A DNA stretch of 64,000 bases. Origin: Myxococcota bacterium. Its GTDB lineage: Bacteria > Myxococcota_A > UBA9160 > SZUA-336. Position 1 is the first letter of the stretch. Every line of letters starts with the position of its first letter. Below the pieces are notes generated by a model. It was not told the DNA's origin, searched no databases, and saw nothing but the letters and a program-made list of their open reading frames with translations. Shown in pieces: positions 3,311-62,462 of the stretch. The translations under genes were made by a program, and so were the position numbers. The stretch covers positions 1,498,669 to 1,562,668 of the forward strand of contig CBDFGR010000002.1 in NCBI GenBank assembly GCA_965247115.1. Direction: 5' to 3'.

Positions 3311-4927
3311 ATGGCCGTGTCCGAGCAAGCTCATCCCGCGCTAGTCGTCCGCGGCTCCTGTAGCGAGTGCGGCGGTCCGTTTCGCGCCGGCATCTGGGAC
3401 CACTCGTTCCACTGCGAATACTGCGGGTCTCTCCTGCTGTCGAAGCGCGAGCTGGGCGGCGAAGTGTACGTCGTCACCTCGGGGCGGAACCTCGCGGTGC
3501 TCGACGTGATCATCGCGAGGGAGTCGGATGAGCTGCGCTCCAGGCTGGCCGGGCGTTACAGGAGCGATGACGGCCTGAGCCTGGAGCTCCCCGCGTTCGT
3601 CGAGGCCAAGGTGACCACGCTCCAGGCGGAGCTGCGCGCCTCGCTCGAGCTCGTGGAGACGATCGACTTCTTCGCCCCGTACCTGGTTCGCGAGCAGACC
3701 GTCATGCAGGGCATCCTGGGCAGGCGACGGGGCCTGAAGGAGTCCTTCGTCCAGGCTTTTCTCGTGGAAGAGCTGGCGCGCCGGTACGACGCCTCGGACT
3801 TCAACCTGCGGGACCGCGGCCTCAAGATCCGGGGCCTGGAGCTGCAGCTCCTGCGCGACACTCACTTCGCCGAGAGCGAGCCCCGCTTCCTTGAGGCCAA
3901 CACGGCTGCGGAGTTCGACTCGCGTCTGGATCGCTCGGCGTTTCGCGTGCGAGCCGACACCCAGATCATCAGCCGCATTCACGACACGACGCGTGAGCGC
4001 CGCCTCAGCGTCTACAAGCACATGAGCTACGCCTGCGTGAAGCGCGACGCTGCTCCCGAGCGCTACCTGATCGACCGCCAGTTCGACGGCATCGCAGGCA
4101 GGCCCTCGGCGGAGGAGGCCGAGCGGTTTCGAGCCCTGCCGCTCCGGCCGATCTCCCAGGTCCTGGTGCCACCGGACATCCGGGCGATCGCGTCGCAGTG
4201 TCCGAACTGCGGCTGGGAGCTGGAGCTGCCAGCGCGAGAGAGCATCGTCTTCTGTCCTACCTGCTGGCTCGGCGTGTCGGTGACACCGGAGGGGCTTCAG
4301 GCGCACACCTACCGGGTCGAGCAGGCGCAGCCTCTGAGCCATGACCGGCGGCTGCTCTATTTCCCGTTCTGGGCGTTTCCTTTCCGGGTGCGCGCGGAGG
4401 GCGCGCTCTACACGCGACTCTGGGACTGGCTGGCCGCAGTCTCCCCCCAGCCGCTGGCGGAGCAGTTCCGCGAGACGGACCTGCCGGAGAGCACGTTCTT
4501 CCTGCCGGCGCGCGAGGTCTTCGGCAGTCCAGAGCTGGACGACGTGTTTGCCCAGCTCACCGGTTGGGTGAACTGGCGCCAGCCCGAGCTGCTTCGGGAT
4601 CGCCCGCCACCCGCCGAGCGGACGAGCGCGCTCGGCGTGGAGCTCTCGCCCGCCGAGGCCTGGAAGCTCGCTCGCTTTGCCCTGCTCGCACTGCACGACG
4701 ACCAGAGCACGCGCCGCCTGAACGGCGGCAACTTCGGCCGGTACCTGGCGGAGGCGGAGACTCTGCAGGGCTCCGCGTTCCTGGCCCTCGTCCCGCTCAT
4801 CAGCAGGGGCGAGGACTGGGACCCGGGTCTCAAACTACTGGGCTCCAGCGTGCGGGGGTTTCCCATGGCCCGGATCGAGGGCAGCGCCGCCAGGGCGCGA
4901 CTGACCAAGAGCTTCAACCTCGTGTGA
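3311..4927 (+). CDS. hypothetical protein with two CxxC...CxxC zinc-ribbon motifs
   Basis: ORF track 538 aa; CSECGG...HCEYCG near N-terminus and CPNCGW...CPTCW mid-protein; no family recognised by eye. First gene of a co-directional cluster with 5016..5504 and 5510..6646. Confidence 0.5.
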   Translation: MAVSEQAHPALVVRGSCSECGGPFRAGIWDHSFHCEYCGSLLLSKRELGGEVYVVTSGRNLAVLDVIIARESDELRSRLAGRYRSDDGLSLELPAFVEAKVTTLQAELRASLELVETIDFFAPYLVREQTVMQGILGRRRGLKESFVQAFLVEELARRYDASDFNLRDRGLKIRGLELQLLRDTHFAESEPRFLEANTAAEFDSRLDRSAFRVRADTQIISRIHDTTRERRLSVYKHMSYACVKRDAAPERYLIDRQFDGIAGRPSAEEAERFRALPLRPISQVLVPPDIRAIASQCPNCGWELELPARESIVFCPTCWLGVSVTPEGLQAHTYRVEQAQPLSHDRRLLYFPFWAFPFRVRAEGALYTRLWDWLAAVSPQPLAEQFRETDLPESTFFLPAREVFGSPELDDVFAQLTGWVNWRQPELLRDRPPPAERTSALGVELSPAEAWKLARFALLALHDDQSTRRLNGGNFGRYLAEAETLQGSAFLALVPLISRGEDWDPGLKLLGSSVRGFPMARIEGSAARARLTKSFNLV

Positions 4928-5015
4928 GAGCTCCTCAAGCTGGGCCCGGAGCACGCCGAAGCACCTCTTTGCACCTGGCGCTCTTGACCTTCGCTGACGA
5001 ACGGGGAGCACGGCT

Positions 5016-5504
5016 TTGACAGATCTCAATCGAGTGATTCGCGGCCAGAGGAACGCCCTCGAGGCCCTGGTCCAGCACGTCCCCGGCTTTCGCGGCTACT
5101 TCGATCGGGAGAATCGGCGCGAGGCAGACCGTCTGGTCCGCGACTTCGGCGTGACCCGGCTCGAGCGTCTTTGCTCGGAGCTCAGCGAGACCACCAAGCA
5201 GGCTGCGCTCTCCGAGATGGACACCTATCAGGAGACGATCAACCAGGCGGAGACTCTGCGCAACGCCCTGCGCCATGCCGACCAGGGCTACTCGGGCTTT
5301 TTCGCGGAGATCAAGTGGGACGACGAGGACGCCCTGCAGGCCGTCTACTGCCTGGACCTGGAGCTGGTCCTCGACATCGAAGCACTCGTCTCGGACTTCG
5401 ATTCCGGAGCACCCGCGCCCGAACGACTTCGCGGCGAGCTCGTAGGACTCAAACGCAGGCTCGAAGATCGCCGCGCCGCGATCCTCGGCCTGGTCGGGGA
5501 GTGA
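5016..5504 (+). CDS. hypothetical small protein (about 160 aa)
   Basis: ORF track 162 aa; codon at 5016 is TTG (alternative GTG at 5034); stop 6 nt before the next gene start, suggesting co-transcription. No recognisable motif. Confidence 0.4.
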   Translation: MTDLNRVIRGQRNALEALVQHVPGFRGYFDRENRREADRLVRDFGVTRLERLCSELSETTKQAALSEMDTYQETINQAETLRNALRHADQGYSGFFAEIKWDDEDALQAVYCLDLELVLDIEALVSDFDSGAPAPERLRGELVGLKRRLEDRRAAILGLVGE

Positions 5505-10186: not shown

Positions 10187-10405
10187 ATGCACATCTCGAT
10201 TACGTACTGCGGGGCCTGAAACTACCTCCCGCAGGCCACCAGTCTGGCGGCCACGATCAAGGCAGAAGTCGGCGTCGAGACCGAGTTGATTCGCGGCGGC
10301 AGCGGCGTCTTCGACGTAGAGGTCGACGGCCGCACGATCTACTCCAAATCCGAGACCGGCCGCTTCCCCGAGCCGGACGAGATCCTCCCGGAGCTCAAGG
10401 GGTAG
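10187..10405 (+). CDS. selenoprotein W-like (Rdx/SelW/SelT family) small redox protein with in-frame UGA (Sec) at 10217-10219
   Basis: Manual translation from ATG 10187: MHISITYCGA-U-NYLPQATSLAATIKAEVGVETELIRGGSGVFDVEVDGRTIYSKSETGRFPEPDEILPELKG*; CxxU motif and FDVEVDG...SK...GRFP signature; not in ORF track because of the TGA. Confidence 0.75.
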
Positions 10406-10411
10406 TGGGCC

Positions 10412-10500
10412 TTTTGGGACCCGGCCGCGGGCGTCCGCGGCCACCCACCTCCGCTCAGGCCAGGGGCCTTCGCTGCGCGCGCCGCTCTCGCAGCGCTTGC
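10412..10500 (+). repeat. GC-rich ~90-bp multi-hairpin repeat, copy A (REP/RPE/MITE-like family)
   Basis: TTTTGGGACCCGGCCGCGGGCGTCCGCGGCCACCCACCTCCGCTCAGGCC-AGG-GGCCTTCGCTGCGCGCGCCGCTCTCGCAGCGCTTGC, immediately after the selenoprotein stop; matches copies B-H. Confidence 0.85.
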
Positions 10501-10570
10501 GCGGGTGCTTGGTCGAGGACGGGGTCGGGAGATGTCGACAGGGATGGAGGCGCGGCCTAGGCTCCGTCGC

Positions 10571-10933: not shown

Positions 10934-10953
10934 CAGTCGACCTCGGCACCGCA

Positions 10954-11043
10954 GCAAGCGCCGCGAACGCGGCGCGCGCAGCGAAGGCCCTCGGCCTGAG
11001 CGGAGGTGGGTGGCCGCGGACGCCCGCGGCCGGGTCCCACAAG
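10954..11043 (-). repeat. GC-rich ~90-bp repeat, copy B (inverted relative to A)
   Basis: GCAAGCGCCGCGAACGCGGCGCGCGCAGCGAAGGCCCTCGGCCTGAGCGGAGGTGGGTGGCCGCGGACGCCCGCGGCCGGGTCCCACAAG; ends next to the korB stop codon. Confidence 0.85.
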
Positions 11044-12069
11044 TTACGAGACGGTCCAGCGGTCGCCGGCGAAGAGGAGGTCGGCGAGGCCTGCGTCGCC
11101 ATGCGCGAGCTCGGCCTGGGACTGCTCCTGCGTTTCACCGTCGAAGGTTGGCTCCTCCACGGCCCGCAGCACGCCGATCGGCGTGGGGAAGTCGGGCGCC
11201 TCGCAGCGGGCCAGCAACATGGACAACGTCGGGTCCCGATTCGTCTCGTCGTGCAGGACCTCCACGCCGTCGTCCTTGGCACCGACGTGACCAGCGTAGA
11301 GGCGCAGGTAGGTCGGGTTTAGCTTGAGCATACGATCGTGATCGTTGCCGTAGATGAGCGGCTGACCGTTCTCGAGCACGAGCAGGTGGTCGGACTTGAT
11401 CTTGCGGTCCTTGACCTCATCGAACACACCGTCGTTATAGACCGGGCAGTTCTGGTAGATCTCGAGGAAGGCAGAGCCTTTGTGCTCGGCCATCCGGCGA
11501 ATCATTTCCTGCAGGTGACGGGTCTCCGTGTCTACCGTCCGCGCGACGAAGGTCGCCTCGGCTCCCAGCGCCAGCGAGAGGGTGCGAAATGGCCGGGCCA
11601 CCGATCCGTTTGGCGACGACTTCGTCTTCATGCCGATCTCGGAGGTGGGCGAGAACTGACCCTTGGTCAGCCCGTAGACCTTGTTGTTGAACAGCAGGAT
11701 CTTCAGATCCACGTTGCGACGCAGCATGTGGATCAGGTGGTTTCCACCGATAGACAGCCCATCACCGTCGCCGGTCACCACCCACACGGACAGGTCGGGT
11801 CGTGCGATCTTCAGTCCGGTCGCGATGGCCGGCGCGCGCCCGTGAATCGTGTGAAAACCGAACGTGTCCATGTAGTACGGAAAGCGCGAGCTGCAGCCGA
11901 TCCCGGACACGAAGACGATGTTCTCGCGCGGGACGCCCAGCTCGGGCATGACCTTCTGCATCTGGGCGAGGATGGCGTAGTCGCCACAGCCCGGGCACCA
12001 GCGCACCGCCTCGTCCGGAATGAAGTCCTTCTTGGTCAGCTTCGGGGCATCTGCGGTCTGAATGCTCAT
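11044..12069 (-). CDS. korB: 2-oxoglutarate:ferredoxin oxidoreductase beta subunit
   Basis: 341 aa; WCPGCGDYAIL...GIGCSSRFPYYM...VVTGDGDGLSIGGNHLIHMLRRN, TPP-binding beta subunit signature; 4-bp overlap with korA. Confidence 0.85.
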   Translation of the reverse strand: MSIQTADAPKLTKKDFIPDEAVRWCPGCGDYAILAQMQKVMPELGVPRENIVFVSGIGCSSRFPYYMDTFGFHTIHGRAPAIATGLKIARPDLSVWVVTGDGDGLSIGGNHLIHMLRRNVDLKILLFNNKVYGLTKGQFSPTSEIGMKTKSSPNGSVARPFRTLSLALGAEATFVARTVDTETRHLQEMIRRMAEHKGSAFLEIYQNCPVYNDGVFDEVKDRKIKSDHLLVLENGQPLIYGNDHDRMLKLNPTYLRLYAGHVGAKDDGVEVLHDETNRDPTLSMLLARCEAPDFPTPIGVLRAVEEPTFDGETQEQSQAELAHGDAGLADLLFAGDRWTVS

Positions 12070-14464: not shown

Positions 14465-14653
14465 GAAGGCCTCCCCGAGCCCCTCCGGGCAGTGCGAAAG
14501 AATCCGGCCAGTGGCTCCTGGCGTCGACCTGGAGCGTGTCCGCACCCGCTGGGAGGGGTCGTTTGCGCCTCCGCAGTCTACCCCATCCGCCAGAGCGCAA
14601 CCCGAGATCGACCTAGACGCCGCGCCCGCTGGGTTGAGTACAGGGGCACTACT

Positions 14654-14743
14654 GCAAGCGCCGCGAAGACGGCGCGCGCAGCGAAGGCCGTAGGCCTGAG
14701 CGGAGGTGGGTGGCCGCGGCCGCCCGCGGCCGGGTCCCACAAG
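14654..14743 (-). repeat. GC-rich ~90-bp repeat, copy C
   Basis: GCAAGCGCCGCGAAGACGGCGCGCGCAGCGAAGGCCGTAGGCCTGAGCGGAGGTGGGTGGCCGCGGCCGCCCGCGGCCGGGTCCCACAAG, directly 3' of the alcohol dehydrogenase stop (14755). Confidence 0.85.
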
Positions 14744-14754
14744 ACCCGATCCCA

Positions 14755-18984: not shown

Positions 18985-19112
18985 GTCTCTGGGCCCCCTC
19001 CAAAGCAACGCTCGCAGCAGTATACTTACAGATGGGCGCTTTGACGGAAATATCACAATCTCTGAGGTTCGAGGGGTACAGGGCAGGTCTGCAACCGGCT
19101 ACTCTGCCACGC

Positions 19113-20168
19113 ATGCGTGAGAAGCGTGTTCTCGGCGACGCGATCGGCGTCCTCCCGACGGATTGCTACGACAACCCGACCTGGAAGGGTGTGGCCTGGC
19201 TGCTGCGCGACCTCGTCATCTACGCGACAGTGGTGATCGCGCTGGTGGCAGCCGATTCGATCTTCCTGGTCGTCCCGCTGTGGCTGCTCGCCTCGCTGAG
19301 CATCGCTGCGCTCTTCACTCTGGGACACGACGCTGCCCACGGTGCGCTGTTCCGCAGCGGGCGTCTGAACTACGTGCTCGGTCAGCTCGCGATGCTGCCC
19401 TCGCTGCATCTCTATGAGGCCTGGTGCTTCGGCCACAACCGGATCCACCACGGCCACACGACGCGCGAGAGCATGGACTACGTCTGGCACCCAGTGACGC
19501 CGCAGCAGTTCGCGGAGCTGTCCACCCGGCAACGGCTCGCACACCGTCTGATGTGGTCGTGGATCGGCGGGGGAATCTACTACCTGCGCGACATCTGGTG
19601 GCGAAACATGGTGCACTTCACGCCCCCGAGCCGGATTGCGGGCAAGGTCCGCCGCGATCGGATCGTCGTGGGGACGTTCTTCGCCGCCGCGAGCCTGGCT
19701 CTGTTCGGGCTCGGCGCATCGCTCTCGGGGACACTTGGCGGCGCGCTCTGGATGTGGGTCAAGGTCTTCGGCGTGCCCTTCCTGCTCTGGAATTACTGCA
19801 TCGGGATCGCCGTCTACGTCCACCACATCGCACAGGACATCCCCTGGAAGAAGCGTCGTGACTGGACGAAGTTCACCGGGCAGGTCGAGGGCACGACCGT
19901 GCTCCATGTCCCGCGCTTCATTAACTTCTTCTTCCACAACATCTTTCTGCACGTTCCCCACCACGTGGACATGCGGATCCCCTTCTACGGCCTCCCCGAG
20001 GCTGTCGTCGCCCTGCGCGAGCATTTCGGCGACGTCCTGCGCGAGCGCGAGTACCGCCTCCGCGACTACATCAAGACCACGCGCGCCTGCAAACTCTACG
20101 ACTTCGAAGCCGGCGTCTGGCGCAACTATTCCGGCGAAGCCGCAGACCCCGCGACTGCCCAGGCCTAG
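19113..20168 (+). CDS. membrane fatty acid desaturase
   Basis: Histidine boxes HDAAH, HNRIHH and HVPHH plus hydrophobic segments; ATG at 19113. Confidence 0.75.
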   Translation: MREKRVLGDAIGVLPTDCYDNPTWKGVAWLLRDLVIYATVVIALVAADSIFLVVPLWLLASLSIAALFTLGHDAAHGALFRSGRLNYVLGQLAMLPSLHLYEAWCFGHNRIHHGHTTRESMDYVWHPVTPQQFAELSTRQRLAHRLMWSWIGGGIYYLRDIWWRNMVHFTPPSRIAGKVRRDRIVVGTFFAAASLALFGLGASLSGTLGGALWMWVKVFGVPFLLWNYCIGIAVYVHHIAQDIPWKKRRDWTKFTGQVEGTTVLHVPRFINFFFHNIFLHVPHHVDMRIPFYGLPEAVVALREHFGDVLREREYRLRDYIKTTRACKLYDFEAGVWRNYSGEAADPATAQA

Positions 20169-20272
20169 GTCACCCGTCCCGCGACTGGAGCCCGAGACGA
20201 AGGGTGGGGTCCGCGCCCCGACCTCCCGGTCGGAGGCGTCTTCCGAGCGCTACAGATTTCCCGAGGAACGAC

Positions 20273-20872
20273 CTAGGCAGGAGAGGCCCGCGTCCCACCT
20301 GGCACCGCCGAGGGATCCAGAAGCCCGTGGCGTCGCCAGCCGACTCTCAGGAGCCAGGTGTGCGCGTTGGCGACTGGTCGAGGCCGCTCTACACGCTCGA
20401 GTCGAGCCGTACCTCTCTTCCACCCATCAAACCACCGGCCCGAGGAGGCGGGATCCAGAGCCGTGCGCGCAGTTCGGCGATGCCGGGCCGCGTTGAGCAG
20501 TACGTACCGGATTGCATTCCGGACTTCGTGCGGCGTCTTCAGAACCCGCATGTGGTAGCGATCCGCCAGCAGCAAACCTCGCCACCCGAACGCCCGCCGC
20601 ATCGCCCAGATCATCCTTCTGCTCAAGGACTTCATCCCACGACCGAGGGCGTGCTGATCCTTCGCCTCAACGATCAGGTGTGCGTGATCCCGCAAGAGAG
20701 CGTAGTGCACCAGCCGAAACTCGCCCCTGTCGCACCCACGAGTGGCGAGCGTATCCTCGAACGCTCGCACAAAGGCCGGAGCCCGTAGCGACGGAACTCC
20801 CTCGCGTACTCGCAGCGTCACGTGGCACGGATGTCTCGACGGCAGCTTTGGCCGACTCCGATGCTGAACCAG
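20273..20872 (-). CDS. Y1 (HUH) transposase, IS200/IS605-like / REP-associated tyrosine transposase-like; start codon unresolved
   Basis: ...HVTLRVREGVPSLR...EFRLVHYALLRDHAHLIVEAKD...LLADRYHMRVLKTPHEVRNAIRYVLLNAARH... then DPASSGRWFDGW tail; HuH motif (H-A-H) and catalytic RY. No ATG/GTG/TTG found just upstream of the conserved core. Confidence 0.55.
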   Translation of the reverse strand: MVQHRSRPKLPSRHPCHVTLRVREGVPSLRAPAFVRAFEDTLATRGCDRGEFRLVHYALLRDHAHLIVEAKDQHALGRGMKSLSRRMIWAMRRAFGWRGLLLADRYHMRVLKTPHEVRNAIRYVLLNAARHRRTARTALDPASSGRWFDGWKRGTARLERVERPRPVANAHTWLLRVGWRRHGLLDPSAVPGGTRASPA

Positions 20873-21024
20873 GGGGTTTGGGCCAGGCTTGCGCCCAGCC
20901 CCCGTGCGCCGCCCGCCATGACGCGCGGGAGGCCGTAGATCAAGGGAGAGCTGTCTGTTTGATTGCGTCACTCTATCACCGATAAGTGTAGAATAGGGCG
21001 TTCTAAGAACGGGCCTTCGGCGAG

Positions 21025-21570
21025 TTTGGCCTGCCCCTGCGTGATCTTGACGGACAACGGGTCCCCTTTCGTGGCTCCGCGGGCTCACCGGCTCAGTGTG
21101 TGATGGAATGAGCCTCGGGATCCGCCCCGTTCGCATCGAGCCTGCCCACCCGGAGCAGAACGGGGCTCACGAGCGCATGCACCGGACCCTCAAGGCCGAG
21201 ACCACGCATCCGCCTGCCGGAAACCGCGGCGTCCAGCAACGCCGCTTCAATCGCTTCCGGCAGATCTACAACGAGGAGCGGCCACACGAAGCGCTCGGTC
21301 AGGTCCCTCCTGCAAAGGTGTGTGGCGCCCTTCGGCTCGAGCCTTTCCCGAGCGGATCCCTCTTCCGGAGTATCCCGAACACTAGACAACAGAGTGTTAC
21401 CCATGTTGCCGGTCTAACCGTTACCCATGTCCCGGGTTGAACAAAGATCGCCGCGCTAGAAGGCCCGCTTTATCGGGCTCGACGAGACCGAGGACGGGAT
21501 CTGGTCGGTCTACTTCAGAGACGTCCTGCTCGGTCGCTACCACGAGGAAGAACGGAGGATCTTCTGGTAA
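21025..21570 (+). pseudogene. DDE transposase (rve integrase-core) C-terminal remnant, frameshifted
   Basis: Three frames carry consecutive pieces: VILTDNGSPFVA; MSLGIRPVRIEPAHPEQNGAHERMHRTLKAE...YNEERPHEALGQVPPAKV; ...RFIGLDETEDGIWSVYFRDVLLGRYHEEERRIFW*. N-terminal half absent. Confidence 0.55.
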
Positions 21571-21655
21571 GGCCGGGCTCCTGCGAGCCTGTGTCTCGAA
21601 GCCAATGAATGCAAGTGGAATAGAGAAGAAAGACAGACGGGCCGATCCAACGGAC

Positions 21656-21943
21656 CTAGCGAGGGGCTCCGGAGGTGCCGTGGGCGTCGCGGCGCGCGGC
21701 TTCGTCGACGTGGATGGGGATCTGGAGGACCTGGCTCGGATAGATGCGGGCCGGGTCTTTGATCTGGTCTCGGTTGAACTTGTAGATGACTGGCCAGAGG
21801 TAGGGGTCGGCGTAGATGTCCGGCTGGCCAGCGATCGACCAGAGGGATTCGCCGCTCTCCACCGTGTGCTCGATGGTCTCGGCTGCGTTCGCTGACAGCG
21901 TCGTCAGGGCCAGGATTCCTATGCTCGCGGCGAAGCTCCTCAC
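21656..21943 (-). CDS. small secreted LysM domain protein
   Basis: 95 aa; signal-peptide-like MRSFAASIGILALTTLSANA then HTVESGESLWSIAGQ...YPSQVLQIP LysM motif; 4-bp overlap with aspS stop. Confidence 0.65.
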   Translation of the reverse strand: MRSFAASIGILALTTLSANAAETIEHTVESGESLWSIAGQPDIYADPYLWPVIYKFNRDQIKDPARIYPSQVLQIPIHVDEAARRDAHGTSGAPR

Positions 21944-23748
21944 TCGTCCGCGCTCTCGGTGACCACGCCGCGCAGCCGGATGCCGAGCTCCTGCAGCTGC
22001 TGGCCGGTCACGCTGCTGGGCGACTCCATGAACATGTCCTGCCCGCGCTGCGTCTTCGGGAAGGCAATCACGTCGCGAAGACTGTCGCCGCCAGCGAGCA
22101 GCAGGCAGAGGCGGTCGAGGCCGAACGCGAAGCCCCCGTGCGGAGGGGCGCCGGTCTCGAGCGCCTCGAGCATGAAGCCGAAGCGCGCGCGCGCCTCGGC
22201 TTCGGGATAACCGAGCAGCTCGAGGATCTTCAGCTGCACGTCGGAGCGATGGTTCCTCAGGCTGCCGGAGCCCAGCTCTACGCCGTTCAGCACCAGGTCG
22301 TAGTGGGTCGTCTTGACCCGAAGCGGCTCGGAGTCGAGCAGCGGGATGTCTTGCTCTTCAGGTGCGACGAAGGGCATGTGCATGGGTGTGAGTCCGCCGC
22401 CCTCCGCCTCCTCGAAGAGCGGGAAGCCGAGCACGAAGTGTACGTCCCAGAGACGGCCGTCGGTGCGCCCGAGGCGCTCGCCAAGCTCGACCCGCAGCCG
22501 CCCCAATACGTCGCTCACCAGGGCGGGCCGGTCGGCGCAGAACAGGAGCACGTGCCCGGGCTCCAGGCCAGCGCGTCCAGCGATCGCGCTGCGCTCCTCC
22601 TCGCTCAGGAACTTCGCGATCGGGGAGGCCCAGGAGCCGTCCTCCTTGACCCGCACCCAGGCCAGACCGCGCGCTCCCCACTTGCGGGCCTGCTCGCCAA
22701 GCCGGTCCAGGTCGCTCCTGGTCACCTCATCGGCGCGCGGGAGCGGGAGCCCTCGTACCACGCCCCCGCGCTCTATGGCGGAGGCGAACACCTCGAAGCC
22801 ACTCTCTGCGACGACATCCGAGAAGTCGACGAGCTCGAGCTGGATGCGGCGATCCGGTCGATCCGAACCGTAGCGCGACATGGCCTCTTCGTAGCTGATG
22901 CGATCGAAGGGGCGCGGTAGCTCGACCCCTACCACGTCCTGGAGCGCGCAGGCGGTGATCTCTTCCAGCACCTGCAGCACCTCGGCAACACCGACAAACG
23001 ACAACTCGAGGTCGAGCTGCGTGAACTCGAGCTGGCGGTCGGCGCGCTGGTCCTCGTCACGAAAGCAACGTGCGATCTGAAAGTAGCTGTCGAATCCGGC
23101 GACCATTAGCATCTGCTTCATGATCTGCGGAGACTGCGGCAGCGCGTAGAAGCTGCCGTGCTGAAGCCGACTCGGGACCAGGAAGTCCCTGGCGCCCTCG
23201 GGCGTGGCCCGCGCGAGCAGCGGCGTCTCTATCTCGTACATGCCAAGGCTCGTGCACGTGCGACGCAATGACTGCAGCAGCCGGTGCCGCAGCTCGAGCC
23301 GACGCTGCATGACTGGGCGCCGCAGCTCGTGGATCCGATGCCGTAGCCTGACGGCATCTTCCACCACCGTGTCGTCCTCGAGAGTGAACGGCGGCGTTGC
23401 CGCCGTGTTCAGGATCCGCACCTCGTCCGCGATCAGCTCGACCTCGCCCGTCGGGAGCTTGGTATTGATCGCGTCGTCGGCACGCCGCTCGAGACGTCCG
23501 CGTACGGCCAGGACCCACTCGGAGCGGATTTGCTGCGCCCGCTCGTGCGCCTCGGGCGCGTTGTCAGGTTTGAACACCACCTGGGCAATGCCGGTGCGAT
23601 CGCGCAGGTCGATGAAGACGACTCCGCCGTGATCTCTGCGGCGTCTTACCCAGCCACACAGGGTGACTTGCTGCCCGACTCGTTCCGCGCGCACCTCGCC
23701 ACAGAATTGTGTGCGACGCAAAGTTCCTAAGGGATCGAGCTGCACCAC
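21940..23748 (-). CDS. aspS: aspartate--tRNA ligase
   Basis: 602 aa; ...FIDLRDRTGIAQVVF..., ...QSPQIMKQMLMVAGFDSYFQIARCFRDED..., ...GGFAFGLDRL class II motifs. Confidence 0.9.
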   Translation of the reverse strand: MVQLDPLGTLRRTQFCGEVRAERVGQQVTLCGWVRRRRDHGGVVFIDLRDRTGIAQVVFKPDNAPEAHERAQQIRSEWVLAVRGRLERRADDAINTKLPTGEVELIADEVRILNTAATPPFTLEDDTVVEDAVRLRHRIHELRRPVMQRRLELRHRLLQSLRRTCTSLGMYEIETPLLARATPEGARDFLVPSRLQHGSFYALPQSPQIMKQMLMVAGFDSYFQIARCFRDEDQRADRQLEFTQLDLELSFVGVAEVLQVLEEITACALQDVVGVELPRPFDRISYEEAMSRYGSDRPDRRIQLELVDFSDVVAESGFEVFASAIERGGVVRGLPLPRADEVTRSDLDRLGEQARKWGARGLAWVRVKEDGSWASPIAKFLSEEERSAIAGRAGLEPGHVLLFCADRPALVSDVLGRLRVELGERLGRTDGRLWDVHFVLGFPLFEEAEGGGLTPMHMPFVAPEEQDIPLLDSEPLRVKTTHYDLVLNGVELGSGSLRNHRSDVQLKILELLGYPEAEARARFGFMLEALETGAPPHGGFAFGLDRLCLLLAGGDSLRDVIAFPKTQRGQDMFMESPSSVTGQQLQELGIRLRGVVTESADE

Positions 23749-42356: not shown

Positions 42357-43706
42357 CTAGCCGGACCCCCGGTTCTTCCGCCAGCTCGGGTGGGTGATTC
42401 CGAGGCGCTGCACGCGATAGTTGAGCTTGCGTCGGCTCATGCGAAGCAGATGGGCCGCGTCTTTCTGTACCCAGCTGGCGCGTTCCAGGGCCTGCAGGAC
42501 GAGCGAGCGCTCTACCTCTCGGTAGTCGACACCTTCGGCGGGCAGGCGCACCGCCATGCCTTCCCCGCCCTCGTACTCGGGCGCGTCCAGACACAGGTCG
42601 CAGCGCTCGACGCACTCGGAGTCGCCCATCAAGACCGCTCGCTCGACCACGTTGCGAAGCTCGCGCACGTTCCCTGGCCAGTGGTGTCGCATGAGCGCAT
42701 CCAGCGCCCCGGGCGAGAAGCCGCGCTTGGGTCTGGCCTCCAGCCGGTTGAACTCGCGCAAGAACTCCTGCGCCAGCTCCGGGACGTCGCAAGCTCGCTG
42801 GCGCAGCAGGGGCAGCCGAATGGTGATGACGTTCAGCCGGAAGAGCAGCTCCGCCCGGAACTGACCCGCTCGGATCATCTCGCGCAGGTCCTGGTTCGTG
42901 GCCGCGATCACCCGTACGTCGACGCGCAAGGACTGCGAGCCACCCAGACGCTCGAACTCGCGCTCTTGCAGCGCGCGCAGCACCTTGCCCTGAGTGCGCA
43001 GACTCATGTCTCCGATCTCGTCGAGGAACAGAGTCCCGCCGTCCGCCTCCTCGAAACGTCCGAGACGACGCTGCTCGGCTCCCGTGAACGCGCCACGCTC
43101 GTGACCGAACAGCTCGCTCTCGAGCAGCGGCTCTGGCAGCGCGGCGCAGTTCACCTTGACGATGCGCTGCGTGCGTCGAGGCGACAGAGCGTGAATAGTG
43201 CCGGCAACCAGCTCCTTGCCAGTCCCGGTTTCGCCGATCACGAGCACGCTGGCGCGCGAGCCAGCCACCTTCTTGATCTGCCGTCGCACGGCTTTGATCT
43301 CCGGACCGGAGCCGAGTATCGAGCGCTCGGTCTCGAGCGCCGCACTCTCGCCACGCAGACGCGCGAGCTCTACACGCAACCCAAGCTGTGCAAGCGCGCG
43401 ATCGAGCTTGATGCCCAGCTCGTCCAGATCAAAGGGGAAGGCGACAAAGTCGTCCGCCCCCTGCTTGAGTGCTGCCACCTGTGCCTCGACGCAGCCGCGC
43501 GCGCAGAGTGCCAGGATCGCCGGACGCGGTGAGAGAGCGGCGAGCTCGCGCAGTCGCGCAGCGGCTGCGGGGTAGTCGAGGATCGCTGCCCGCGGGACGC
43601 CTCCCGCCAGGCGCTCCTGTACCTCGTAGCCCTGCCCGGTGAGCCATCGCTCCAACTCCGAGCGGACTTTCGAGTCCCCGCAGACCAAGACCACGCGCTC
43701 GTGCAC
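42357..43706 (-). CDS. sigma-54-dependent response regulator (NtrC family)
   Basis: 449 aa; GETGTGKE Walker A, ESELFGHERGAFTGA (GAFTGA motif), C-terminal HTH. Confidence 0.9.
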   Translation of the reverse strand: MHERVVLVCGDSKVRSELERWLTGQGYEVQERLAGGVPRAAILDYPAAAARLRELAALSPRPAILALCARGCVEAQVAALKQGADDFVAFPFDLDELGIKLDRALAQLGLRVELARLRGESAALETERSILGSGPEIKAVRRQIKKVAGSRASVLVIGETGTGKELVAGTIHALSPRRTQRIVKVNCAALPEPLLESELFGHERGAFTGAEQRRLGRFEEADGGTLFLDEIGDMSLRTQGKVLRALQEREFERLGGSQSLRVDVRVIAATNQDLREMIRAGQFRAELLFRLNVITIRLPLLRQRACDVPELAQEFLREFNRLEARPKRGFSPGALDALMRHHWPGNVRELRNVVERAVLMGDSECVERCDLCLDAPEYEGGEGMAVRLPAEGVDYREVERSLVLQALERASWVQKDAAHLLRMSRRKLNYRVQRLGITHPSWRKNRGSG

Positions 43707-46425: not shown

Positions 46426-46471
46426 CCCCTACCCGATCGGCAACCTGAACCCCTAGCCGATCGGCAACCTG
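46426..46471. promoter_or_regulatory. tandem 24-bp direct repeat, each unit carrying the palindrome CCGATCGG; candidate regulator-binding site
   Basis: CCCCTACCCGATCGGCAACCTG-aa-CCCCTAGCCGATCGGCAACCTG located 25-70 bp upstream of the epimerase start. Confidence 0.35.
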
Positions 46472-46553
46472 CAAGCGCCGCAATTGCGGCGCGCGCAGCG
46501 AAGGCCTGAGCGAAGGTGGGTGGCCCGCGGACGCCCGCGGGCCGGGTCCCACA
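46471..46553 (-). repeat. GC-rich repeat, copy D (short variant lacking the GGCC-N3-GGCC hairpin)
   Basis: GCAAGCGCCGCAATTGCGGCGCGCGCAGCGAAGGCCTGAGCGAAGGTGGGTGGCCCGCGGACGCCCGCGGGCCGGGTCCCACAG directly 3' of the sigma-54 regulator stop (46559). Confidence 0.8.
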
Positions 46554-46558
46554 GGGAC

Positions 46559-47986
46559 TCACTCCGCGAGGCCACACTCCTTGATCTTCTGGAGGAGGGT
46601 CTTGTAGCTCACCTCGAGGATCTTGGCGGCCTTCTTGCGGTTCCAGTTCGTCTGATACAAAACTTGTCGCAGCGCCCGCCGTTCCGCCGCTCGAGCGGCT
46701 CGCTTGCCGATCTCGCGCAGCGACACACCCTCCTGCGTCGGATCGAGCTCCGGAGCCGCCTCGTCCTCTTCCTCCACTCTCGGGTGGACCGAAGCACTGG
46801 TTCCAAAAACCTCGTCCGCGATGACCTCCTCGCTTTGCAGCACGACGATGCGCTTCAGCATGTTCTCGAGCTCACGCACGTTCCCCGGCCAGGGATACTC
46901 CTTGAAGCCCTGCCGGAGGCGCTTGGACAGCGTGACTTGCTCGCGCCCGTACTCGCGGCTGTACAGCGTCAGGAAGTGGTCGGTGAGAAGCGGGATCTCC
47001 TCTGGCCGCTCGCGGAGCGGCGGCACGCGGACGTTCACGACGTTCAGCCGGTAATACAGATCCTCGCGGAACGTGCCTTTGCGAACCATCTCCTCCAGGT
47101 TGCGGTTCGTCGCGGCCACGACGCGGACGTCGACGCGGACCTCGGTGTGGCCGCCGAGCCGTGAGAACTCGCCGTCCTGGAGGACCTGCAGGAGCTTCGC
47201 TTGGAGCTTGGGACTCATCTCCCCGATCTCATCGAGGAACATGGTGCCACCGCAGGCGACCTCGAACTTGCCCGGCTTGCGGGACGTCGCGCCCGTGAAG
47301 GCCCCGCGCTCGTAGCCGAACAGCTCGCTCTCGAGCAGCTCCTCGGGCAAGGCCGCGCAGTTCACCTTGACGAAGCGCTTCGTGCGCCGCGTGGACAGCT
47401 CGTGCACGGTACGCGCCACGACCTCCTTGCCCACGCCACTTTCACCGTGGATCAATACGGTCACCCCGGCGTCGCCGATCTGCTCGAGGATCTCCCGGAT
47501 CCGGTTCATCTGCTCGGAGGCCCAGAGGAACGTCGCCTTGCCGCGACCGCGTTGGCTCCCGGGCAGCTCGTCCTGGTGGACCTCGGGGGCAGAGTCGAAC
47601 GCCCGCTCGAGCGCGTCCCCGAGCTCCTTCTCCTCGAAGGGCTTGTTCAGGTAGTCAACCGCGCCGATGTTCATCGCCTCCACTACGGTGGCCGCCTTGC
47701 GCACCACCGAGAGCATGATCACGGGCATGCTCGGCAAGCGGCGGCGAATCTCGCGCAGCGTGTCCAGACCACCCAGGTCCGGCATCATGACATCGAGGAA
47801 GATCGCGTCCGGCTGGGTTTCCCGCTCGAGGAGCTCTAGCGCCGCGGCGCCGTCCGCGGCCAGCACGACGTCGTATCCCAAAAGAGGCAGCAGGTTCTGC
47901 AGGTAAGCCCGAATGGCCTCTGCGTCGTCAACGACCATCACCCGTCTGCGCGAGGGAATACTTCGCGGCGCTCCGGACCTAGTCAT
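46559..47986 (-). CDS. sigma-54-dependent response regulator (NtrC family)
   Basis: RRRVMVVDDAEAIRAY receiver; GESGVGKE; ESELFGYERGAFTGA; C-terminal HTH. ATG at 47986 (track ORF starts at GTG 47995). Confidence 0.9.
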   Translation of the reverse strand: MTRSGAPRSIPSRRRVMVVDDAEAIRAYLQNLLPLLGYDVVLAADGAAALELLERETQPDAIFLDVMMPDLGGLDTLREIRRRLPSMPVIMLSVVRKAATVVEAMNIGAVDYLNKPFEEKELGDALERAFDSAPEVHQDELPGSQRGRGKATFLWASEQMNRIREILEQIGDAGVTVLIHGESGVGKEVVARTVHELSTRRTKRFVKVNCAALPEELLESELFGYERGAFTGATSRKPGKFEVACGGTMFLDEIGEMSPKLQAKLLQVLQDGEFSRLGGHTEVRVDVRVVAATNRNLEEMVRKGTFREDLYYRLNVVNVRVPPLRERPEEIPLLTDHFLTLYSREYGREQVTLSKRLRQGFKEYPWPGNVRELENMLKRIVVLQSEEVIADEVFGTSASVHPRVEEEDEAAPELDPTQEGVSLREIGKRAARAAERRALRQVLYQTNWNRKKAAKILEVSYKTLLQKIKECGLAE

Positions 47987-48044
47987 GGCGGTCACAGCTC
48001 GAGTCCATCGCTCACTCTATCGGCGAGGAACTCCGCGGGCTTGT

Positions 48045-48240
48045 CTTGTGGGACCCGGCCCGCGGGCGGCCGCGGGCCACCCACCTTCGCTCAGGCCAAA
48101 GGCCTTCGCTGCGCGCGCCGCTTCCGCGGCGCTTGCCTTGTGGGACCCGGCCCGCGGGCGGCCGCGGGCCACCCACCTTCGCTCAGGCCAAAGGCCCTCG
48201 CTGCGCGCGCCGCTTCCGCGGCGCTGCGCGCGCCGCTGCA
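48045..48240 (+). repeat. GC-rich repeat, copies E1 and E2 (two tandem units, period 92 bp)
   Basis: CTTGTGGGACCCGGCCCGCGGGCGGCCGCGGGCCACCCACCTTCGCTCAGGCCAAAGGCC(T/C)TCGCTGCGCGCGCCGCTTCCGCGGCGCTTGC twice, in the divergent intergenic region between the sigma-54 regulator and ligA. Confidence 0.85.
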
Positions 48241-51770: not shown

Positions 51771-51783
51771 CCGAGCCAACCGG

Positions 51784-51876
51784 GCAAGCGCCGCGGAACG
51801 CGGCGCGCGCAGCGAAGGCCGAAGGCCTGAGCGAAGGTGGGTGGCCCGCGGACGCCCGCGGGTCGGGTCCCACAAG
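51784..51876 (-). repeat. GC-rich repeat, copy F
   Basis: GCAAGCGCCGCGGAACGCGGCGCGCGCAGCGAAGGCCGAAGGCCTGAGCGAAGGTGGGTGGCCCGCGGACGCCCGCGGGTCGGGTCCCACAAG between convergent yraN-like and rplS. Confidence 0.85.
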
Positions 51877-51882
51877 ACAGGT

Positions 51883-52233
51883 CTATTCGGCCGTGTAGCG
51901 CTCGCGGATCCGCGCTGCCTTGCCCCGCAGCTCGCGCAAGTAGAAGAGGCGCGAGCGGCGCACGCGGCCGCGCGACTTGAGCTCGATCCGGACCACGTTC
52001 GGCGACTGCAGGGGGAAGACGCGCTCGACGCCGACGCCGTAGGACACCTTGCGTACGGTGAACGTCTCGTGCATCCCACCCCGATGGCGCTGGAGCACAA
52101 CTCCCTCGAAGACCTGCACGCGCTCCTTGTCCCCCTCCGTGATCCGGACGTGCACGCGAACGGTGTCACCGCTGCGAAACTGCGGGTGGTCGGTCCGCAT
52201 GCCCTCTCTCTCGATCTCTCGAATCTCTCTCAT
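51883..52233 (-). CDS. rplS: 50S ribosomal protein L19
   Basis: 116 aa; ...[55 protein letters not shown]... Confidence 0.95.
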
Positions 52234-55055: not shown

Positions 55056-56623
55056 CCCGCGTGGTCCCGGAGCGCCCGGAGCGCAATGTCGCTCCTGAGC
55101 TGGGCACCCTCGAACTGGATGCGACGCGCGGCGGCGTAGGCACGATCGCGGGCGGCGGCGATGCTGGCACCGCGGGCCGTGATGCCGAGCACGCGCCCAC
55201 CTGCCGTCTCCCAGCGACCGCCAGAGCGGCGGGTGGCGGCGTGAAACACGAGAACCTCCGGCTCGCTCTCGAGCTCCTCGAGCCCCCTGATCTCTCGCCC
55301 CACCGGGTAGCTGCGCGGATAGCCCTCGCTCGCCAGCACGACGCACACGGCCGGATCCCCGAAGACGGGGCCTGCGGGACCCGGCGCGCGAGCGGTCGCG
55401 CGCCACCCACCTCCGCTCGGCTTCGCCTCGCTGCGCGCGCCGCTATCCGCGGCGCTTGCACCTGCGGGACCCGGCGCGCGAGCGGTCGCGCGCCACCCAC
55501 CTCCGCTCGGCTTCGCCTCGCTGCGCGCGCCGCTATCCGCGGCGCTTGCACCTGCGGGACCCGGCGCGCGAGCGGTCGCGCGCCACCCACCTCCGCTCGG
55601 CTTCGCCTCGCTGCGCGCGCCGCTATCCGCGGCGCTTGCACCTGCGGGATCCGGCGCGCGAGCCGCTTGCAGAGGGAGCTGGCCCTGGGCCGCACCCACG
55701 AGCAGCGGGACGAGGTCGGACTCCATTCGGTACAGCAGAGGCTGCGTCTCCGGGTCGCCGAAGCGGACGTTAAACTCCACCACAACGGGCTCGGCCTCGA
55801 CGACCATCACGCCGACGTAGAGCACTCCCCGATAGGGCGTGCCCTCCGCACGCAGGCCGTCGAGCGTGGGCTGAACGATCTTCTCGATGATTCGCTGCTC
55901 CACGTCGGGGCTCACAACCGGGGCCGGGGAGTAGGCGCCCATGCCTCCTGTGTTCTCGCCGCGGTCACCGTCTAGCGCGCGTTTGTGATCCTGCGCAGCG
56001 GCCAGGCACACGCTGCGCTCCCCGTCGGAGATCGCGTAGTACGAGGCCTCCTCGCCAACGAGCCAGTCCTCGATCACGACCTCGGCACCGGAGTCGCCGA
56101 AGCGCCGCTCGCGCATGATCTCCGAGAGGGCAACGCTCGCCTCATCCGGACCCGCGCACATGTACACGCCCTTGCCAGCCGCGAGCCCGTCCGCCTTCAC
56201 GACAAGCGGCCCGCCGCGAGCGCGCACATACCGCTCCGCTTTGTCTGGGTCCGCGAAGCCCTGGTAGGCGGCAGTCGGGATGCCGTGGCGCTGCATGAAG
56301 GCCTTGGCGAAGCTCTTGCTGCCCTCAAGGCGAGCCGCGGCCGCGCCGGGCCCGAATACCGCGATCCCGGCAGCCTCGAGGTGATCCGCCAATCCCGCGA
56401 CCAGGGGAACCTCGGGACCGACGACCACCAGCTGAACGTCCTCGCGTTTCACGAGCTCCACGACGGAGTCGGGGCTGGCCAGCCGCGCCTCCGCACAGCG
56501 GCCGTGTCGCCCGATGCCGTCGCTGCCCGGGGCGCAGAGCACCTCGTCGACCAGCGGGCTGCGGCCGATCGCCCAGACCAGCGCGTGCTCACGACCTCCC
56601 GAGCCCAGAACCAGGACGCGCAT
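55052..56623 (-). CDS. purD: phosphoribosylamine--glycine ligase, carrying an about 95-aa in-frame insertion of repeat units
   Basis: MRVLVLGSGGREHAL...PLVVKADGLAAGKGV...FNVRFGDPETQ... then (ASAADSGARSEAKPSGGGWRATARAPGPAG)x3 before ...VVLASEGYP...; ATG at 56623 with GGAGGAG RBS. Confidence 0.9.
   Translation of the reverse strand: MRVLVLGSGGREHALVWAIGRSPLVDEVLCAPGSDGIGRHGRCAEARLASPDSVVELVKREDVQLVVVGPEVPLVAGLADHLEAAGIAVFGPGAAAARLEGSKSFAKAFMQRHGIPTAAYQGFADPDKAERYVRARGGPLVVKADGLAAGKGVYMCAGPDEASVALSEIMRERRFGDSGAEVVIEDWLVGEEASYYAISDGERSVCLAAAQDHKRALDGDRGENTGGMGAYSPAPVVSPDVEQRIIEKIVQPTLDGLRAEGTPYRGVLYVGVMVVEAEPVVVEFNVRFGDPETQPLLYRMESDLVPLLVGAAQGQLPLQAARAPDPAGASAADSGARSEAKPSGGGWRATARAPGPAGASAADSGARSEAKPSGGGWRATARAPGPAGASAADSGARSEAKPSGGGWRATARAPGPAGPVFGDPAVCVVLASEGYPRSYPVGREIRGLEELESEPEVLVFHAATRRSGGRWETAGGRVLGITARGASIAAARDRAYAAARRIQFEGAQLRSDIALRALRDHAG
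55371..55674 (+). repeat. GC-rich repeat, copies G1-G3 plus a partial fourth, period exactly 90 bp, inside purD coding sequence
   Basis: CCTGCGGGACCCGGCGCGCGAGCGGTCGCGCGCCACCCACCTCCGCTCGGCTTCGCCTCGCTGCGCGCGCCGCTATCCGCGGCGCTTGCA repeated at 55371, 55461, 55551; a diverged variant of the intergenic repeat. Confidence 0.85.
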
Positions 56624-56631
56624 CACTCCTC

Positions 56632-56751
56632 CTTGTGGGACCCGCGCGCGGGCGGCCCTCCCGCGGGTCAACGACCCGCGGGCCGCTGACGGCTTCCCAC
56701 CTTCGCTCAGGCCTACGGCCTTCGCTGCGCGCGCCGCTATGCGGCGCTTGC
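56632..56751 (+). repeat. GC-rich repeat, copy H (long variant with about 30-bp internal insertion)
   Basis: CTTGTGGGACCCGCGCGCGGGCGGCCCTCCCGCGGG...TTCCCACCTTCGCTCAGGCCTACGGCCTTCGCTGCGCGCGCCGCTATGCGGCGCTTGC; abuts the purD RBS and lies 3' of alr. Confidence 0.8.
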
Positions 56752-56802
56752 AGGCTGCCTATTCTAGCGCTCAGGCTTACGACCTTCGGCGCGTTTCTTG
56801 GG

Positions 56803-61053: not shown

Positions 61054-61087
61054 GGCGGCGGAGCCCGCCGTCAAAGGGACTGGCCCG

Positions 61088-62443: not shown

Positions 62444-62462
62444 ACCGCAGGAGAGGAATTCG

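Follow-up and report, generated by a model that had tools for sequence, protein, structure and literature searches.

An intact gene for a divergent protein of the Y1/HUH superfamily of transposases, hereafter the Y1 gene, lies on the minus strand of a 64-kb stretch of DNA from a Myxococcota bacterium (assembly GCA_965247115.1, contig CBDFGR010000002.1, positions 1,498,669 to 1,562,668). This stretch, referred to as the window, is the part of the source genome that was examined. Upstream of the Y1 gene, on the plus strand and divergent from it, lie frameshifted pieces of a DDE transposase gene. The account of this locus that we regard as probable, taken as a whole, is that the Y1 gene would be a persistent or domesticated gene kept by purifying selection, being neither an active high-copy insertion sequence (IS) nor a pseudogene, that the plus-strand pieces would derive from one IS481-family element which inserted twice in succession and of which right-hand parts remain in decayed form, and that the Y1 gene would stand without detectable connection to a family of 90-nt repeats in the window. 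The coordinates of all features are collected in Table 1.

The Y1/HUH protein and its family

The listed minus-strand open reading frame (ORF) at 20273-21136 contains the peptides HVTLR, DHAHLIV, ADRYHMRV and IRYVLLN, all of which a preliminary description of this DNA had quoted correctly. In a family alignment with 22 homologues, the proteins begin with M/V-(R/T)-K-S-D-R-Q-L-S-L-D-L, which places the true start of the Y1 gene at a GTG (20971) that follows GGTGAT; the product then has 232 aa and begins with VTQSNRQLSLDL. The 287-aa reading of the same ORF was rejected as an over-extension, whose 55 extra upstream codons cross the promoter and enter the IS debris.

The homology to Y1 transposases proposed in that description is real, with profile scores below the cut-offs. 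The NCBIfam profile REP_Tyr_transpos (NF047646) covers the whole core with 32-33 bits (E=6e-8 to 9e-8; equivalog cut-off 80 bits), and the Pfam profile Y1_Tnp (PF01797) gives 17.2-17.7 bits (E=0.006; gathering threshold 23 bits), while the IS200 profile matches merely at E=0.23. The proposed search against Y1_Tnp and rve models thus returned a sub-threshold match for the former and, in the DDE debris, 58 bits for rve_3. All 23 aligned relatives match REP_Tyr_transpos (best 1.4e-15) and 20 of them match Y1_Tnp at E<=0.01 (best 4.3e-7). On these scores the protein is nearer to the profiles of REP-associated tyrosine transposases (RAYT; REP, repetitive extragenic palindrome) than to those of the IS200 type.

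An AlphaFold2 model was built on a 235-aa query, in which the core (residues 50-170) is predicted to follow the order strand-helix-strand-strand-helix-strand-helix, with block-mean confidence (pLDDT) of 68-93 over residues 50-160. When this model was compared with the PDB by Foldseek, the top 24 matches were all Y1 transposases, led by the E. coli RAYT (4er8, E=5e-6) and followed by the TnpA proteins of ISDra2, IS200 and IS608 (2xm3, 2f4f, 2a6m). Since searches of the PDB by sequence and by a profile from the family alignment returned nothing relevant, only the fold search tied the protein to Y1 enzymes in that database. Both histidines of the HuH motif, which falls on a predicted strand (99-106 of the query), are invariant in the 23 relatives; the Y, V, L, N and H of the tyrosine helix (predicted at 150-166 of the query) and the R, Y and H of ADRYHMRV are invariant in the family alignment as well, and the window copy retains all 58 family-invariant residues. 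Judged from profiles and predicted fold, the protein is a divergent member of the Y1/HUH superfamily and not a certified RAYT. By analogy with the solved Y1 enzymes, His96 and His98, together with Asn160, would bind a divalent metal, and Tyr156 would cleave single-stranded DNA beside a recognised hairpin or terminal repeat, form a 5'-phosphotyrosine link and then rejoin the strand. The arm around GAGRKPG is Arg-rich and predicted to be disordered; by eye it is a candidate AT-hook-like motif for binding the minor groove.

A homologue search returned more than 5,145 proteins from Myxococcota, metagenome-assembled 'delta' genomes, Binatia and Planctomycetota. The gene is present in multiple, diverged copies per genome, for instance as eight paralogues on a single 7-Mb contig (CAVXIU010000006.1). 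Each copy stands alone among housekeeping genes, and the DNA similarity between paralogues (70-88% identical) is confined to the coding sequence plus 30-70 bp.

The IS481 debris and its recurrence beside Y1 genes

The plus-strand debris had been described as three pieces of an rve-type DDE transposase ending at 21570. The type was right, as was the presence of debris at that position; the pieces are, however, five frame segments, and the debris runs on to about 21631. The piece at 21096-21440 (a 114-aa fragment) has transpos_IS481 as its best NCBIfam match (63 bits), next to the 58 bits for rve_3, and the stitched product of 183 aa is 59% identical, over 99% of its length, to 316-aa proteins of rve plus rve_3 architecture. 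By tblastn, residues 134-163, 155-244 and 281-314 of one such homologue (P0121) map to 21029-21106, 21081-21353 and 21463-21564. The C-terminal ~55% of the transposase survives in these segments, while the N-terminal ~130 residues and the left end of the element are gone; at least four frame changes, as well as in-frame stops, interrupt the gene, and a single right-end doublet of inverted repeats (IR) is left.

The structure of the complete element can be read from a nearly intact relative in another locus (L041), whose transposase combines an HTH/LZ_Tnp_IS481 N-terminus with a DDE core, and which terminates at both ends in an 18-nt repeat arranged as a tandem doublet (consensus CCGG-n-ACAT-s-G-n-T-r-ACAC). 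Its IR doublets (3377-3420 and 4606-4632) bracket the DDE gene alone, with the Y1 gene outside. In the window, the segment called remnant A keeps the second catalytic D (in TDNG) and the E (in NGAHER), is 72-76% identical in DNA to the ISs of L041 and L042, and ends at an IS terminus near 21442. The doublet at that end (21386-21446), a 23-nt direct repeat with a spacing of 24 nt, agrees with the IR consensus worked out from L041 and L009 and shows 90% identity to its counterpart at the right end of an IS derivative in L041 (5020-5080). Remnant B, which has lost its own terminal repeat, is 84-85% identical to its equivalents upstream of Y1 paralogues in L036, L039 and L041. In an intact element the C-terminal tail and the post-stop region stand before the doublet; in the window the doublet comes before the tail at 21469-21567. 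Since the right-end doublet precedes the tail, two remnants are present.

The order of events is suggested by the same locus in a sister strain (L035, a 27-kb contig), whose neighbouring genes are 98.7-99.3% identical to those of the window. This contig carries remnant B at 91.5% identity, lacks exactly 21006-21441/2, a gap that ends at the terminus of A, and retains the TTGACA -35 hexamer of the Y1 gene. Element B would have inserted first and decayed to its C-terminal tail; in the window lineage, A would then have entered the DNA that separates B from the Y1 promoter, and later would have lost its left half together with ~8 nt of promoter, including the -35 hexamer. The leader and -10 region of the window gene is 80-94% identical to its counterparts upstream of the paralogues in L036 and L039 and of the L035 orthologue, and a TTGACA-N17-TAnTCT promoter is found in L035, L036, L048 and L069; a search for a sigma-70-like site upstream of the window gene returned none, the -35 hexamer being replaced by IS debris.

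The locus had also been taken for the only clearly horizontally derived DNA in the window, a claim for which the data give no support. The G+C content over the Y1 gene and remnant A (0.63-0.70) is like that of the neighbours (0.60-0.73) and dips to 0.57 solely at 21350-21650, that is, over the IS end and the intergenic stretch. The Y1 gene is syntenic in L035 and predates the split of the two strains, and tblastn against the PLSDB plasmids gave no match. From the comparison of the two strains, a recent gain or loss can be demonstrated for remnant A only.

The same type of IS occurs in 10 separate loci (Table 1), each time upstream of a Y1 gene and in divergent orientation. The flanking genes are unrelated among these loci, and the lineages span two at phylum level. 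Surviving left ends of the IS adjoin a point 9-12 nt upstream of the Y1 -35 hexamer, and no DDE similarity was found elsewhere in the ~600 kb of Y1-flanking DNA. Two sequences first taken for IS ends, one after the Y1 stop codon and one apparently supplying the -35 hexamer in L036, were dropped when a fuzzy IR scan did not confirm them.

The alternative that survives best, though we consider it unlikely, is that the Y1 and DDE genes form one composite transposon, with Y1 as a passenger or the IS within a moving Y1 cassette, so that their adjacency would be inherited. The repeated divergent arrangement agrees with it, as does an IS-flank junction common to L039 and L041 (CCAGG followed by TCTGTACC); moreover, in the CAVXIU genome the left terminal repeat of the Y1 cassette lies ~40 nt beyond the -35 hexamer, which puts the IS site inside such a cassette. 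However, the IR doublets enclose the DDE gene alone, no sequence beyond the Y1 stop codon is common to the loci, and most members of the family (more than 100 loci) have no IS. The deletion junctions also vary by locus: a single junction shared by L035 and L036, as if tail and Y1 gene had moved together, was considered and rejected, given that the tail lies 8 nt from TTGACA in one and 26 nt in the other. The ages point in the same direction. Remnant B behaves as neutral between the strains (8.5% divergence, against a synonymous difference, pS, of 9.4% in the Y1 gene), yet it is 84-85% identical across loci whose Y1 genes differ by a dS of 0.66-0.79; since, for a given pair of loci, the remnants differ far less than the synonymous sites of the Y1 genes do, the insertions must be younger than the splits of the paralogues. 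One site was hit twice, as tandem insertions, in both the window and L041, and A is polymorphic with respect to L035. Finally, a Y1 gene adjoins none of the three more distant DDE homologues (49-54% identity) whose surroundings are informative, and the habit is therefore that of a single IS lineage. Taken together, these comparisons favour repeated, targeted insertion over co-inheritance.

The native site GTACC-n-TTGACA resembles the terminal repeat of the IS, GTACATGG-TTGACAC, which suggests targeting by mimicry of the element's end. A wider proposal, possible although somewhat doubtful at present, is that this IS481 subgroup would be a 'parasite of a parasite', specific in both site and orientation, which repeatedly hits a ~10-nt stretch just upstream of the Y1 -35 hexamer in Myxococcota and Binatia. 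Its targeting may proceed by end mimicry, or it may require DNA structures or nicks that the Y1 protein produces at the promoter of its own gene. If the targeting is Y1-dependent, the two transposases would be functionally coupled. The apparent site- and orientation-specific tie of one IS481 lineage to the promoter edge of Y1 genes is the unexpected result of this analysis; the rest is ordinary.

The 90-nt repeats and the state of the Y1 gene

Eleven copies of a 90-nt unit with three hairpins occur in the window, in both orientations, where 0.5 matches to its core motif are expected. Compensatory changes mark the third stem of the copies near 55.4 kb (GGCCCGCGG/CCGCGGGCC to GGCGCGCG/CGCGCGCC), and an Rfam scan of the whole window returned nothing. 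It had been remarked that these repeats do not obviously flank the Y1 gene, which holds: no copy lies within 5 kb of it, the nearest being at 14645-14743 and 46469-46556. The accompanying suggestion that the gene drives the repeats finds no backing. An nhmmer search finds the 11 copies of the window but none in the 324 kb that surround 45 homologues, the closest paralogues included, and none in 80 metagenome loci; the unit is absent from ~600 kb of related loci overall. Similarity between the flanks of the gene and the repeat is at the level of shuffled sequence (downstream spacer, 137/300 and 58/300 shuffles; upstream region, 245/300 and 120/300), and no terminal inverted repeats (TIR) or REPs above shuffles were found around the window gene. 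A likeness of 20190-20218 to the 90-nt core, noticed by eye, was rejected, as 137/300 shuffles score as well.

It is therefore quite improbable that the Y1 protein acts as a RAYT and moves these multi-hairpin repeats in trans, in the way proposed for RAYTs and their REPs or REPINs. The closest profile and the closest solved fold are those of RAYTs, and a structured repeat, with compensatory changes in its third hairpin, abounds in the window. Against this stand, besides the empty flanks and homologue neighbourhoods, the 32 bits obtained where the cut-off is 80, the lack of the RAYT W and Y-x3-NP motifs in the family, and the description of the nearest subclass (2.1/TIRYT) as not REP-associated (PMC6006769). 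The 90-nt family needs another explanation than the Y1 gene, and the unit itself is a candidate miniature inverted-repeat transposable element (MITE), REP-like element or RNA. Two further repeats were noticed in the window: three direct repeats at 59900-63260, 1.45-1.54 kb apart and of 60-89% identity, which resemble three tandem paralogous genes, and a 159-nt direct repeat (43078-43236 and 47289-47447, 77% identity, 4.2 kb apart), which probably reflects paralogous genes.

Several comparisons bear on the state of the Y1 gene. Among its closest paralogues, dN/dS is 0.11-0.28 at a dS of 0.4-1.1. Against the L035 orthologue, pS is 0.094 and pN 0.016 (pN/pS 0.17), while the non-coding remnant B beside it has diverged by 8.5% between the strains. 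The spacer on the other side (20169-20272, compared with L035 5673-5814) has diverged by 15%: it is 85% identical over 61 nt, and the remainder is replaced and indel-rich. Next to neighbouring genes of 99% identity, this spacer beside the Y1 stop codon is a local hotspot of turnover. The whole feature had been called a mobile-element scar, a term which fits the IS; the Y1 gene is not a scar, because its ORF is intact with all 58 invariant residues and both selection measures (dN/dS 0.11-0.28, pN/pS 0.17) are low. A reading of the two genes as dead relics, with the Y1 ORF an unexpressed pseudogene that has no stop as yet, is highly improbable: the -35 hexamer lost to the IS, the frameshift near the 5' end in the sister strain and the lack of detected cis ends (REP or TIR) at the window gene would agree with it, but the intact ORF with every invariant residue, the low dN/dS across paralogues and a pN/pS of 0.17 beside an IS remnant and a spacer that have diverged by 8.5% and 15% all oppose it.

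Several points nevertheless weigh against the account given at the outset. For the identity of the protein, they are the Y1 scores under both curated thresholds, the empty sequence and profile searches of the PDB, the low confidence of the model in its first and last thirds, and the fact that catalysis and substrate are carried over from the solved Y1 enzymes. For the state of the gene, the loss of the -35 hexamer leaves its expression uncertain, and the L035 orthologue has a 1-nt insertion (+1 frameshift) at ~5010-5020 (window ~20905-20915), in the N-terminal arm; the basic arm may thus be dispensable or the L035 copy may be decaying, and selection on this arm may be relaxed. Gene callers start the L035 orthologue at an alternative Met (P0001, 223 aa). 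For the insertions, A may have been excised in L035 instead of inserted in the window lineage, and some of the 10 loci may share ancestry, which would make the independent insertions fewer than 10. As for the 90-nt repeats, 64 kb of the genome were seen, and a relation with the Y1 gene may exist elsewhere in it.

For annotation, the locus holds an intact, divergent Y1/HUH (RAYT/TIRYT-like) protein and two nested IS481-family pseudogene remnants. The protein family (more than 5,000 proteins) is multi-copy and under selection. The curated models for RAYT and IS200 do not take it in, and none of its members has been characterised, which makes it a sensible choice for biochemical work on domesticated HUH nucleases. 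The oriented, recurrent insertion of the IS481 element would give a clean natural example of IS specificity for a gene of another mobile element.

Table 1. Features of the Y1 locus, copies of the 90-nt repeat and IS remnants at other Y1 loci (window positions unless a locus is named)
Feature	Position	Strand	Remarks
Y1/HUH gene (TnpA_REP/TIRYT-like), intact, 232 aa	20273..20971	-	ORF, family-alignment start, profiles, fold, dN/dS
HuH motif DHAHLIVEA (His96-Ala97-His98), third core strand	20663..20689	-	Family alignment, predicted fold
Catalytic-tyrosine helix IRYVLLNAARH (Tyr156, Asn160; Y-x3-N)	20480..20512	-	Family alignment, predicted helix 150-166
ADRYHMRV, site of RAYT W(Q/E) motif, here D-R-Y-H	20543..20566	-	Alignment; PMC6006769 Table 1
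GAGRKPG, invariant, in basic N-terminal arm	20882-20902	-	Residues 24-30
Trp-rich C-terminal extension, DPASSGRWFDGW	20420-20455	-	
Trp-rich C-terminal extension, HTWLLRVGWRRHGLLDP	20312-20362	-	
Y1 leader and -10 region (TATTCT ... GGTGATAGA-GTG)	20972..21005	-	Conserved among relatives
Spacer between convergent stops of desaturase and Y1 genes	20169..20272	.	Small hairpin CCGACC-GGGA-GGTCGG (minus-strand reading); no REP, TIR or 90-nt-repeat copy
Remnant A, IS481 family	21006..21442	+	DDE residues ~134-258 joined directly to right-end IR doublet
Remnant A, frame segments	21007-21036, 21041-21100, 21108-21320, 21332-21382	+	
Remnant A, terminal IR doublet	21386..21446	+	Two ~18-nt copies, 21394-21413 and 21418-21435
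Remnant B	21443..21631	+	Last ~33 DDE codons 21469-21567, stop 21568-21570, post-stop region
Remnant B, hairpin GGCTC-CTGC-GAGCC	21576-21589	+	
Fatty-acid desaturase gene	19032-20168	+	Neighbour
LysM-protein gene	21656-21943	-	Neighbour
aspS	21940-23748	-	Follows LysM-protein gene
90-nt copies	10403-10504, 10945-11049, 14645-14750, 46466-46561, 48039-48225		Last range holds 2 copies
90-nt copies	51776-51886, 55363-55663, 56655-56755		Second range holds 3 tandem copies
IS at Y1 gene, L036/37			Tail only
IS at Y1 gene, L039/40	L039 3808-3960		Left-end doublet fused to tail
IS at Y1 gene, L002			N-terminus plus tail; Y1 truncated
IS at Y1 gene, L041	L041 3377-5080		Full IS and MITE-like internal-deletion derivative in tandem
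IS at Y1 gene, L042			Both N-termini deleted
IS at Y1 gene, L009 (Binatia)	L009 60-130		IS cut by contig end
IS at Y1 genes, soil-metagenome contigs	L069 700-760, L085 2600-2960, L048 2320-2395		

Comparison with known systems

The TnpA proteins of the IS200/IS605 family (IS608, ISDra2) share the fold and the predicted catalytic arrangement of the window protein. They are, however, ~150 aa long with a Y-x3-Q motif, whereas the window protein is ~80 aa longer and has Y-x3-N, and its gene lacks subterminal hairpin ends, a tnpB partner and near-identical copies.

The best match by both profile and structure is the RAYT/TnpA_REP group (E. coli TnpA_REP, PDB 4ER8; NF047646; class 2 of Quentin), so that the RAYT-type assignment of the preliminary description was right as to the nearer relative. 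Common to both are the HuH motif, a single Tyr with an Asn four residues on, and an 'SS' motif in the proximal C-terminal tail; like RAYTs, the family shows low identity of intragenomic copies, a chromosomal location and purifying selection. The assignment fails on the curated score, on the motifs and on the flanking REPs. The class-2 consensus consists of W(Q/E) and Y-x3-NP (PMC6006769 Table 1), in place of which the family has D-R-Y-H and Y-V-L-L-N-A; in the window protein, R-Y replaces W(Q/E), Y-x3-NA replaces Y-x3-NP, and the middle residue of HuH is Ala. The window protein also has ~45 extra N-terminal residues, with the invariant GAGRKPG, and a Trp-rich C-terminus. The REPtron arrangement, that is, a gene flanked by its cognate REP or REPIN, is absent at the window gene, and its relatives reach 8 copies per genome, against ~1-2 for RAYTs. 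The protein was not filed as a RAYT because it departs from every subclass of Quentin et al., 2018 (PMC6006769 Table 1).

In length, tail motif and host range, the protein appears closest to subclass 2.1/TIRYT. The TIRYT genes, found in TIRtrons (Di Nocera et al., 2013, PMC3733652; roughly Quentin subclass 2.1 and Bertels group 1), encode proteins of ~230-240 aa with a C-terminal extension similar to that seen here; both the typical length (~238 aa) and the 'SS' motif agree with the 232-aa product, whose C-terminus is modelled at low confidence and in which a Pfam scan found no DnaA_C or HTH-type C-terminal domain. Like the TIRYTs, this family is not REP-associated and is prevalent in 'delta' lineages. 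The window copy, on the contrary, has no flanking TIRs (best flank-flank inverted repeat z=0.5), the HuH and W motifs of the family differ from the subclass 2.1 consensus (PMC6006769), and the TIR motif of a related genome differs from the published GGGGWSAS (PMC3733652). That related genome is CAVXIU, where all 8 diverged paralogues on CAVXIU010000006.1 (L005, L007, L008, L014, L015, L016, L019, L030) bear GGTTGGTAAGG upstream, at ~100-120 nt from the start in six of them, ~80 nt in L019 and ~27 nt in L016, with its inverse ~50 nt downstream in several (at least 3). The ends of these cassettes are GGTTGGTAAGGG with adjoining hairpins, with a GC-rich hairpin separating the left repeat from a TTGACA-N17-TAGAAT promoter. 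The arrangement is a TIRtron-like cassette in the sense of PMC3733652 and supports the comparison with TIRYT genes. A generic test for TIRs over 84 loci gave 13 at p<=0.05, where ~4 were expected; because this enrichment is merely mild, the claim is restricted to the CAVXIU genome.

As for the DDE element, it shares with the IS481 family the rve/rve_3 core and, in its intact relative, the LZ_Tnp_IS481 N-terminus and the terminal IRs. In contrast to a typical IS481-family member, its ends are tandem 18-nt doublets and its insertion is apparently limited to the promoter-proximal edge of Y1 genes. A literature search, limited in extent, found no paper connecting IS481 with RAYT or TnpA_REP genes. 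Several known ISs, such as IS1397 and ISKpn1 of the IS3 family and some IS110-family elements, target the loops of REP hairpins scattered over the genome. Both these elements and the IS described here home to a sequence feature of the Y1/REP world, but in the present case the target is a single site by the -35 hexamer of the Y1 gene itself, and the IS belongs to another family.

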